This document shows, in pieces, positions 15,001 through 18,000 of a stretch of 64,000 nucleotides of DNA. Each line of letters starts with the position of its first letter. Within the stretch, counting starts at the first letter, position 1. A program made the position numbers. This DNA is from Candidatus Sulfomarinibacteraceae bacterium (GTDB taxonomy: Bacteria > Acidobacteriota > Thermoanaerobaculia > Thermoanaerobaculales > Sulfomarinibacteraceae), in assembly GCA_963796455.1 (NCBI GenBank), contig CAWCLO010000004.1, positions 704,001 through 768,000 of the forward strand, in the 5' to 3' direction.

Positions 15001-18000
15001 ACCTTCGAAAGTGACTGGCGAAAAGCCAAGGCCCTGTTGTCGGAGATCGCCGGACACCACGCCGCCCTCACCAAGGAGGACGCGGCCCGGCAGGTGCGCC
15101 GCGCGGCCAACAAGTACCTCATCCACTATCAACACCTGACGCCGATCGTCTGGACCTCGGTGGCCGACATCGGGGTGACCCTGACCCTCCGGTTTCTGAC
15201 CGATCCGCGCAAGCGGAGGTCGGTCGAAGAGGCCATGTGGGAGGAGATTCTCGATGTCTTCGCCGCCCACGACGATATCGATTTTGCCTACCCGACCCAG
15301 CGCTTTTATGACAACCTGAGCGAGGGCAAACCGGGAGCGAGAGCACCTGCGGCCGGCGACGATCGTTGACCGAAAAATTTTCAGGAGGTCGTGATGGGTC
15401 GGGAAATGGATGTGATGACTTCTTGCGAGCTCTTCCAGGGCCTGGCTCCCGCGACGCTGGAACAATTGGCGAAGTTGGCCCGACGCGAGATCATTGAAGA
15501 CGGACAACTGGTCTTCGAAGTCGGTGCTCCGCGAAGAGGCCTCTATGTGATCGTTGCCGGAAACCTCGGGGTGATCGTGGGTGGCGGCAACGAATCCGAT
15601 CTTCGGATTCTGCTCGGCCCCGGCGAAGCGATCGGCGAAGCGGCGCTCATCGACCAGTCACAACACACGGCCACCGTTCGGGCGCGTGGTCGGGCCGAGG
15701 TCCTGGAGCTGAATGCCGACGAAGTGATCGCCGCGCTCGCCGACGAGCCACAGGATCTCCACCGTCTGCTCTCCAACGTCACCACCATTATCGTCAGGAG
15801 AATGCAGTACGCGGCCTACCGGAGGGTGGGTTGGGAGCAGATCTATCGTTCGGGCGCGACCCGGTTGGAACACGATCTTCTCGGCGAACGGGAGGTTCCG
15901 GACGACGCCCGTTATGGGGTCCAGACTCTGCGGGCGATGGAAAATTTTGACATCACGGGCATCCGTCTCGGCCACTATCCCCATCTCGTGCGGGCCATGG
16001 CCATCGTCAAACAAGCCGCCGCGCGGGCCAACCAGGACCTCGGATTGCTCGATGAGGAAATCGCCTCAGCCATCGAATACGCCTGCCAAGAAATCATCGA
16101 CGGTCATTGGCACGGTCATTTTGTGGTCGATGTGGTGCAGGGAGGTGCCGGCACCTCCACCAACATGAATGCCAACGAGGTGATCGCCAACCGAGCGCTC
16201 GAACTGCTCGGTCACCATCGCGGCGACTACCAGTACTGCCACCCCAACAATCACGTCAATCTCTCCCAGTCGACCAACGACGTCTATCCGACCGCGGTCC
16301 GGGTCGCGCTCCTTCTCGAGCTCGATGAGTTGCTCGCCGAGTTGGAGGCCTTCGAAAAAGTGCTCGAGGCGAAGGCTGCGGAGTTTGCCGACGTCCTCAA
16401 AATGGGTCGTACCCAGCTCCAGGACGCTGTGCCCATGACCCTGGGCCAGGAGTTCGAGGCATTCGCGGTGACCACCGCGGAGGACATCCTGCGGTTGCGC
16501 GAAACGGCCCGTCTCTTTCTCGAGGTCAATCTCGGCGGCACGGCCATCGGTACCGGGATCAACGCCGACCCACGCTATCCGCAGATGGCGGTTGACGAGT
16601 TGACAAAGATCACCGGGCTCGATTTCGTGCTGGCTGCAAATCTCGTCGAGGCAACTCCCGACACCGGTGCGTTCGTGATGTTTTCGGGTGTTTTAAAGAG
16701 GGTTGCGGTCAAGCTCTCGAAGCTCTGCAACGACCTCCGTCTCTTGTCCTCGGGCCCGCGCTGCGGGTTCAACGAGATCAATCTTCCGGCCATGCAACCG
16801 GGGTCTTCGATCATGCCCGGCAAGGTCAACCCAGTGATTCCGGAGGTAGTCAACCAGATCGCCTTTCAGGTCATCGGCAACGATCTCACTATCACGATGG
16901 CGGCCGAAGCCGGGCAGCTGCAGCTCAACGTGATGGAGCCGATCATCACCTTCAACCTTTTCGAATCCCTCGATATGCTGACTGCCGGTGTCCGGGTCTT
17001 CACGCGAACGGTGTATCGCAGGCATCACCGTCAATCGGGATCGGTGCCGCGATCTGATCGAATCTTCGATCGGTGTCGTCACTGCGCTGGTGCCGGTGAT
17101 CGGCTACGAACGGGCCGGCGAGGTTGCCAAGGAAGCCCTGTCCAGCGGCCGCTCGGTGCGGGAGATTCTGCTTGAAGATGGTGATCTCGACCAGGCGGAA
17201 ATCGACAAGTGGCTTTCGCCGGAGGCGATGACCAAACCACGAAACCTCACGTAGGAGCTGGACCCAGGATGCAGGATGCAGGATTCAGGGAACAGAGGAG
17301 ACCCGGTCCCTGTCACAAACGACGTTTCCGGTAGTGTTACCCCTTTCTCCCTTTCTCCCTTTCTCCCTTTCTCCCTTTCTCCCTTTCTCCCTTTCGGGAA
17401 CGGGATCGGGACTGTCGGTCAAGATGTCATCCTGAGCGAAGCGCCTTCGGCGCGAAGTCGAAGGATCTGCGGTCCGGGAATCTCTGTCCATTTCATAGAT
17501 CCTTCGACTACGCCCCATATGGGACTCCGCTCAGGATGACATCGGGAGGCGGCATTCGCTTGAGTTCGAAGTCTGTGCGGGTGTTTCTTCGCTTCCCATC
17601 CGCCTCTCTTGTGGATCGATCTCGCCGTCGATTGCGATAGCGATCCCGATAGCGATAGCGATAGCGATGAGCTGGCCCTCGTGCCCCTCCGCCCCTCTGC
17701 CCCTCCGCCCCTCTGCTATGTCTGGGAGATCGAGCATCGAGGGAGTAGGCGGTCTCCCTTTCACCCTTTCTCGCTCTCGGGGACGGGATCGAGTTCCAAA
17801 GAGAATGGTCGGCTCAGAAACCCCAGCGCGTGAAGAACCAGACCTTCTGGGTGTCGACGGTCCATTCGTCAGCGTCGTAGAGGGCGAACTTGAGTCCGAA
17901 CTGCTGTTTCCAGGAGGTCTTGTAGACCGCGAAACCATCGAGCTCGGTGCCGTAGGACGCGCCGCCGCTGTCGGCGGAGAAGTCGTGGTATTCGGCGCCC

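Follow-up and report, generated by a model that had tools for sequence, protein, structure and literature searches.

A gene for an aspartate ammonia-lyase (aspartase) in a Candidatus Sulfomarinibacteraceae bacterium (GCA_963796455.1) begins with a domain of the cyclic-nucleotide-binding (CNB) type, which raises the question of what such a sensor reads and whether it controls the enzyme to which it is joined. The gene lies on contig CAWCLO010000004.1 in a window of 64,000 nucleotides (contig positions 704,001 to 768,000), the whole stretch of DNA that was analyzed, and positions are given in this window. Aspartase converts L-aspartate to fumarate and ammonia; through it, the nitrogen of amino acids is connected with the fumarate that feeds the TCA cycle and fumarate respiration, and the enzyme also serves as an industrial biocatalyst. 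The CNB-aspartase fusion is real, widespread, and apparently unstudied: no paper on it was found in the main texts searched, among which subscription journals were thinly covered, and the consulted part of a 2026 fumarase survey mentions neither cNMP nor a fusion (PMC13655608). The sensor pocket is altered alike in several bacterial phyla, so that, as judged from sequence, a small molecule probably acts as a direct switch on a central carbon and nitrogen reaction in the bacteria that carry the fusion.

Gene structure and identity of the enzyme

The initial annotation had placed the gene at 15394..17370. Its start stands, as an ATG at 15394 with an AGGAGG upstream, whereas its end moves to a TAG stop at 17252-17254, so that the gene covers 15394-17254 on the forward strand (Table 1). 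The cNMP_binding and Lyase_1 domains share one frame, and FumaraseC_C follows in the next frame (16988-17254). As assembled, the open reading frame (ORF) runs out of frame after an inserted base and stops at 17173-17175; without the extra base, the gene would have 619 codons, which is the length of the family. The CNB domain scored 51.3 bits against the PF00027 cut-off of 27.5, and only PF00027 and PF00206 matched the assembled ORF. An assignment to the CRP/FNR transcription factors was rejected, as the HTH DNA-binding domain is absent from the C-terminus and the C-helix continues into the lyase. The proposed fusion of a CRP-like CNB domain to an AspA-type aspartase was thus borne out by the Pfam domains in one frame, by matches to Crp-family structures, and by the aspartase profile.

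Table 1. Features of the CNB-aspartase gene (window positions).
Feature	Positions	Strand	Basis or remark
Ribosome-binding site AGGAGG	15383..15388	+	5 nt before ATG 15394; sequence
N-terminal CRP-like CNB domain, residues 1-142	15394..15819	+	Pfam PF00027 E 1.2e-13; AF2 pLDDT 89.6; fold matches CRP/GlxR/MlotiK1
Arg47, beta2-beta3 loop	15532..15534	+	Gly position of canonical domains (PKA Gly169); 270/276 CNB-aspartase domains
Phosphate-binding cassette (PBC), residues 81-93	15634..15672	+	Gly81, Glu82, small 83-84, His91 (canonical Arg position), Thr92
Arg136, C-helix	15799..15801	+	270/276 CNB-aspartase domains
Linker, sensor to enzyme	15820..15858	+	Conserved length; Gly146, Tyr151, Gly154 (113 fused proteins)
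Aspartase domains 1 and 2, residues 156-536	15859..17001	+	Lyase_1 E 4e-102; PRK12273 648.9 bits
SS-loop signature, residues 470-480	16801..16833	+	Catalytic Ser471 = AspB Ser318; Met474, Lys477, Asn479; alignment to 1j3u
One extra base, +1 frameshift, codon 537-538	17002..17005	+	1-nt gap vs L002, L003, L005
C-terminal 82 codons and stop, shifted frame	17006..17254	+	End of domain 2 and FumaraseC_C domain 3; PF10415 E 2e-23

The sequence evidence identifies the enzyme part as an AspA-type aspartate ammonia-lyase with intact catalytic residues. Even the shortened assembled protein exceeded the PRK12273 cut-off of 510, as did three intact homologues (P0004, P0102, and P0110); for TIGR00839 (cut-off 681.2), P0004 (690) and P0102 (722.5) were above and P0110 (663.9) below. 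A class II fumarase (FumC) was rejected, given that the assembled protein reached 425 bits and the range including intact homologues was 425-498 bits, against a TIGR00979 cut-off of 664.75; a separate FumC-like gene is present elsewhere in the genome (C4:56507-57877). The highest identity among annotated aspA genes of the plasmid collection was 67.7%. The AspB catalytic positions T101, S140, T141, N142, T187, S318, S319, M321, K324, and N326 were each conserved in 107-113 of the 113 fused proteins, and residues of the SS-loop in 112-113; T101, S140, T141, and N142 are active-site residues of AspB. The positions T187, S318, S319, M321, K324, and N326 are given as active-site residues in the consulted part of PMC11744663, where domain 1 is described as contributing part of a composite active site built from three subunits.

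The extra base near 17004 was located by DNA alignment against three intact relatives (L002, L003, and L005), and is probably an assembly error, because miaB, parB, and rsmE are frameshifted in the same assembly. Frame changes were found in 8 of 137 orthologous ORFs (compared with 320 kb of a congener). About five of these clearly lie inside the ORF; miaB has two shifts, parB has three, and rsmE is also among them. Identity to the intact homologue P0004 was 78% on either side of the shift, which together with the assembly-wide frame changes supports the sequencing error suspected near codon 538. Against two congeners, dN/dS was about 0.07 ahead of the shift and 0.14-0.17 beyond it; the N-domain gave 0.16-0.35. 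A true frameshift would make this copy a recent pseudogene, independently of the family; the extra base is indeed in the assembly, and the different, plain aspA of most congeners would imply that the fused gene is under replacement in the genus. However, this explanation is unlikely, since the gene is the only AspA-type one among the four Lyase_1 matches of the genome, shows no further stop or decay beyond the one-base insertion, and has an open reading frame in 10 of 10 fused relatives.

Fold and binding pocket of the sensor

The resemblance of the N-domain to Crp-family structures held by sequence (4ev0, E 2e-10; 3d0s, E 1.8e-9) and by the AlphaFold-predicted fold (pLDDT 89.6), with a TM of 0.79 to 3d0s and a Z of 18.2 to 1u12. 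The best CNB fold match had an rmsd of 1.8 A over 127 residues at this Z, and the closest folds (CRP/GlxR, MlotiK1, and the CNB domains of channels) were all tied near Z 17-18. The predicted architecture is a beta-barrel followed by a long C-helix (residues 119-142). ESM Atlas matches were generic CNB clusters only, and a 50%-representative search, dominated by multi-CNB proteins, was used as a control set. The segment from Arg136 to Arg157 was 21 residues long in 94 of 113 fused proteins and 23 in 15. Comparison of fused with plain clades brought out no fused-specific conserved surface on the enzyme; a docking surface or a retained fumarase B-site motif specific to fused proteins, suggested by one plain clade, vanished when more plain clades were included.

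Pocket residues were tallied over the fused domains of every source combined, 276 distinct ones in all. Among these, 75 GTDB-locus sequences were chosen by the lyase motif, independently of the pocket, and His91 was present in 75 of 75; later sets were chosen by a profile containing His91, so the pooled counts for this residue (His 273, Tyr 3, Arg 0) carry a mild bias. The Arg to His change had been thought peculiar to this copy, which these counts contradict, and copy-specific decay was rejected on the same grounds. Position 47 never held Gly in the 276 domains; Gly56 was invariant (276/276), Glu82 was found in 269, and residue 83 was Gly, Ala, or Ser in 268. Residue 84, which corresponds to PKA Ala202, was Ala (109), Ser (73), Gly (55), Ile (13), Leu (12), or Val (9), that is, Ala, Ser, or Gly in 237 domains. 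In alignments to both 4ev0 and 3d0s, His91 takes the place of the PBC Arg and Arg47 that of the loop Gly. Of the features of a canonical cAMP/cGMP site, the PBC Glu (PKA Glu200) is therefore kept, and the PBC Arg (PKA Arg209) and the loop Gly are lost. Arg136 resembles Arg123 of CRP, which pairs with the PBC Glu.

The combination is rare outside the family. In 362 unrelated CNB domains with the canonical Arg, position 47 was Gly in 269 and Arg in none; among 543 unrelated CNB domains, Arg47 occurred once, there together with His91, and His91 alone occurred in 42. Both residues were also absent from the genome's remaining 11 CNB domains. According to the consulted sections of PMC2246266 and PMC2275311, PKA Gly169 packs on the guanidinium of Arg209, adjoins Ala202, and is co-conserved with the Arg; a larger residue at this position would clash with the PBC Ala, and PKA without the PBC Arg binds cAMP much more weakly. 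The absence of Arg47 alongside the canonical Arg would be expected if both fill one space. Only 6 of 150 N-domain columns reached 90% conservation or more (mean conservation 0.46 in 113 fused proteins), so selection is concentrated on the pocket. Ser47 occurred only in two family domains, the only two with Arg83, probably through one event; since Arg83 is common in canonical domains (Arg or Lys in 16 of 362), this case of compensation is suggestive only. Val or Ile replaced Glu82 in five domains, four of which, all from one clade, also had Arg136 changed to His. The invariant His91 and Arg47 argue for a pocket that was rebuilt under selection rather than decayed, and against a textbook cAMP site.

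Distribution and evolution of the fusion

Among the best 120 matches to residues 1-200, 117 (this protein included) contained both PF00027 and PF00206; nearly all of these were about 620 aa long and annotated merely as "aspartate ammonia-lyase". The nearest named relatives among the matches listed belonged to Ca. Sulfomarinibacteraceae and Thermoanaerobaculales. Within the order, 57 of 100 genomes had the fused N-domain, but only 2 of 17 congeners did. Another draw of congeners gave plain AspA in 10 of 18 and the fusion in 2 of 18, so the three congeners with a plain enzyme reported earlier were an undercount. In Acidobacteriota, 15 of 150 genomes (including the unpublished G176 and G078) carried the fusion, and 17 (including G176) a plain AspA-type gene. 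The earlier view of the fusion as common in the order and present in other Acidobacteriota was thus correct, but its range is far wider: it occurred in 43 of 200 Bacteroidales genomes and 23 of 400 genomes of their phylum. A GTDB scan yielded at least 426 candidate stretches, for part of which the fusion was confirmed, and the 80 stretches kept span Acidobacteriota, Bacteroidales, Ignavibacteria, Kapabacteria, Gemmatimonadota, Zixibacteria, and Desulfobacterota.

There was no operon conserved across phyla, and no cyclase, phosphodiesterase, or transporter gene was a conserved neighbor. Recurrent neighbors were bound to lineages: among Gemmatimonadota loci, 12 had Asparaginase_2 and 9 had a nicotinate phosphoribosyltransferase-like gene, and a TPR histidine kinase was found in 15 loci; the MscS gene upstream of the present locus was not adjacent in genome G010. 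DcuA/B was not found in this genome, which is 90.5% complete, and two asparaginase matches are located elsewhere in it. A promoter scan gave 0 sites against 1.4 expected, and Rfam gave no match within 11000-20000 of the window.

Fused and plain enzymes were interleaved in trees of the lyase domain, and monophyly of the fused proteins was rejected by the AU test (p 0.006 for 78 rows; p 8e-5 for a set of 38 rows from which long, biased, and redundant ones had been removed). The plain AspA clade of the congeners was sister to the fused clade of Bacteroidota and Ignavibacteria (100/99), and its origin from the present gene by loss of the sensor was accordingly rejected; the plain AspA of Microvirga had a fused Desulfovermiculus protein as its sister (99/97). 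The sensor tree (111 fused proteins, two rows dropped) recovered 25 of the 34 strongly supported splits of the enzyme tree without strong conflict. No vestigial CNB remnant was detected upstream of plain aspA in 35 loci with short flanks. The simplest reading of these trees, in which the root is uncertain and deep nodes are weak, is one old fusion followed by at least two losses of the domain, and domain swapping may be an alternative to loss.

Possible function and comparison with known systems

We favor, at a probability of about 0.6, a "moved-arginine" pocket that would bind a phosphorylated ribonucleotide and relieve a brake on the aspartase; both the ligand and the direction we infer. Arg47, from the adjacent beta2-beta3 loop, would take over the space and positive charge of the lost PBC Arg, and Gly81-Glu82, the small residue 84, and Ser/Thr92 would leave the pocket suited to a ribose-phosphate ligand. 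Together, Arg47 and His91 could accommodate either a cyclic phosphate or a 5'-monophosphate with its two charges. The C-helix, connected to domain 1 of the enzyme by a linker of fixed length, would shift when the ligand binds and thereby pull on the N-terminal hairpin of that domain, which is among the three elements that make up the composite active site. The empty sensor would restrain the enzyme, and the ligand would free it under carbon or energy limitation. Release of inhibition is somewhat favored over the reverse, by analogy with other cis-acting CNB domains and because the domain was repeatedly lost, leaving working plain aspartases, which fits a brake. Regarding the ligand-gated aspartate deamination of the initial annotation, the fusion and the aspartase identity were upheld; the gating itself we infer, and the full-length AlphaFold model, with a linker (143-152) of pLDDT below 50 and no confident contact between sensor and enzyme, leaves the sensor unplaced.

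A 3',5'-cNMP is a tentative candidate for the ligand, and so is another ribonucleotide such as a 5'-NMP or 2',3'-cNMP. Class III cyclase domains were present in 39 of 43 fusion-bearing and 86 of 157 other Bacteroidales, a comparison in which kinship, habitat, and genome size act as confounders. Of 51 hand-picked carriers, 46 had such domains; two carriers of 4.5 Mb each (G181 and G195) had no match to PF00211, PF01928, or PF01295. As evidence on cAMP, this co-occurrence cuts both ways.

NtcA senses 2-oxoglutarate with a CRP-type barrel, and the pocket might similarly sense a non-nucleotide anion (2-oxoglutarate, a C4-dicarboxylate, or an amino acid) as a direct switch for the C/N balance. Two carboxylates could find partners in Arg47, His91, and Arg136, aspartase is placed at the C/N junction, and the fusion is present in genomes without a cyclase match. 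Non-canonical PBCs also bind diverse ligands, according to the consulted part of PMC2246266. Such an anion is nevertheless improbable, since the ribose-binding pair Gly81-Glu82 is kept, its Glu is absent from the NtcA consensus in that part of PMC2246266, and a buried Glu disfavors a dicarboxylate. Heme or metal held by His91, as in CooA, would imply an aspartase gated by gas or redox state for anaerobic fumarate supply. The heme-binding His of CooA occupies the Arg209 position, and the consensus motifs of Fnr, ArcR, and Flp also have His there, as stated in the same portion of PMC2246266; many carriers are sediment or anaerobic bacteria according to database records. However, the full-length PBC helix and Glu82 are retained, apart from His91 no His, Cys, or Met is conserved in the domain, three of the 276 domains have Tyr in place of His, and CooA was absent among the best 50 structural matches, all of which makes heme or metal a very remote prospect.

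Some weight, well short of likelihood, falls on a sensor without any ligand, either structural or self-liganded, which would act as a tetramer stabilizer, C-helix dimerizer, or partner dock. The canonical Gly/Arg pair is gone, the residues beyond Arg136 that would be expected to contact the base are variable, and ligand-free CNB-homology domains score equally high (KCNH2 6syg, Z 17.1; plant channels, Z 17-18). On the other hand, the few invariant residues cluster at the pocket across phyla at a domain identity of 20-45%, and the repeated loss of the domain indicates that the fold of the enzyme is independent of it.

The pocket that binds a phosphorylated ribonucleotide may also be extended in a speculative direction. 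The synthesis of purines, pyrimidines, and NAD draws nitrogen from aspartate. The domain could represent a new CNB subclass whose phosphate-binding Arg has moved out of the PBC and into the beta2-beta3 loop, with Arg47/His91 reading a non-cyclic ribonucleotide (e.g., AMP or IMP) so that the energy or purine status governs the breakdown of aspartate; the sensor-bearing form would then be ancestral for a large AspA branch, and several ordinary aspartases its truncated, constitutive descendants. If the built-in sensor does control the enzyme, a central reaction would be under direct small-molecule control in about half of the order and a fifth of the sampled Bacteroidales species. The carriers are abundant, mostly uncultured bacteria, and in databases the plain name "aspartate ammonia-lyase" conceals their sensor. 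How CNB domains change ligand could be tested sharply and cheaply on the invariant Arg47/His91 pocket, which might also reveal a new signal or yield a switchable aspartase.

The solved aspartases closest to the enzyme part (6wng, 3oce, and 1jsw) and AspB (1j3u) share its fold (TM 0.94-0.96 over the target). Known AspA and AspB are 51-60% identical to it with all catalytic positions in common, and E. coli AspA likewise has Gln at the position of AspB His188; in contrast, the matched structures lack a CNB domain, their matches beginning at residue 154-156, whereas the fused protein carries 155 N-terminal residues of CNB type. The sensor shares the beta-barrel, PBC helix, long C-helix, Gly81-Glu82, Ser/Thr92, and the C-helix Arg with the effector domains of CRP/CAP (M. 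tuberculosis CRP 3d0s, T. thermophilus CAP 4ev0, and GlxR 4byy) and with the MlotiK1 CNBD (1u12). It differs from them in lacking the HTH, in having His for the PBC Arg and Arg for the loop Gly, and in a small residue 83 in place of Leu, Met, Ile, or Val. Loss of the PBC Arg is shared with other non-canonical CNB families (CooA/FixK, Fnr, ArcR, Flp, CBS-type, and trypanosome PKA-R), several of which have His there; none of the 30 CNB families in the consulted part of PMC2246266 is fused to a lyase. In trypanosome PKA, a Glu at the Ala202 position blocks the phosphate and switches specificity to nucleosides, according to the consulted section of PMC10959531; residue 84 was never Glu in the 276 domains, and a nucleoside-binding domain of this type was rejected.

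An N-terminal CNB domain acting in cis on a catalytic domain is likewise found, by sequence match, in the mycobacterial acetyltransferase Pat (4oll), which is presumably regulated via this domain, and in the Bdellovibrio EAL enzyme Bd1971 (6hq3), described as cAMP-sensing in the part of the literature consulted. Pat and Bd1971 are signaling or modifying enzymes, whereas the output of the CNB-aspartase is a lyase of central metabolism behind a non-canonical pocket. The CNB-aspartase would work as a ligand-gated enzyme, yet two defining features of canonical cAMP sites are missing from it.

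Genes flanking the fused aspA gene

The fused aspA gene, which encodes an aspartase with an N-terminal cyclic nucleotide-binding (CNB) domain, lies between two groups of genes (see the table), and the order of the patatin, M23 peptidase, unassigned ORF and MscS genes ahead of it is retained only in part in relatives. Judged by its CTHNSRRS motif, this unassigned ORF is similar to low-molecular-weight phosphatases/arsenate reductases, and it had no Pfam or NCBIfam match at the thresholds applied. The cytochrome c pair and the porin possibly form a porin-cytochrome or nitrogen-redox module. 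The nested inverted repeats are REP/MITE-like.

Features flanking the fused aspA gene (window positions)
Feature	Position	Strand	Detail
Patatin, M23 peptidase, ORF with CTHNSRRS motif, MscS	12058-15369	plus	precede fused aspA
Nested inverted repeats	17423-17543		intergenic, 3' of fused aspA; 19-nt arms 95%, 20-nt arms 90%
Pair of genes for multiheme c-type cytochromes (Multi-haem_cyto; NapC/NirT-like), then Alginate_exp-type outer-membrane porin	17814-21933	minus	

In Gemmatimonadota (L073, L078, L093, L097, L098, L103, L104, L110, and L115), a nicotinate phosphoribosyltransferase-like gene (331 bits, below the PRK07188 cut-off of 378) directly follows the fused gene, which is faced by a gene for a Tat-exported Asparaginase_2.

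Frame changes in the assembly

Both miaB and parB (G000 C4, about 1007700-1011400) contained several frame changes relative to the related genome G010, which reveals local clusters of indel errors in the G000 assembly.

Pocket residues in the fused family and other CNB proteins

A Ser47/Arg83 pocket variant was found at loci L167 and L168 (genomes G365 and G235), whose genomes are both among the 4 of 43 Bacteroidales fusion carriers without a class III cyclase match. Histidine at the Arg position of the phosphate-binding cassette also occurs in several domains of large proteins that carry four CNB domains in tandem (P0144, P0145, P0156, P0166, P0196, P0204, and others), where the His-bearing domains lack the Arg47 that accompanies His91 in the fused family.
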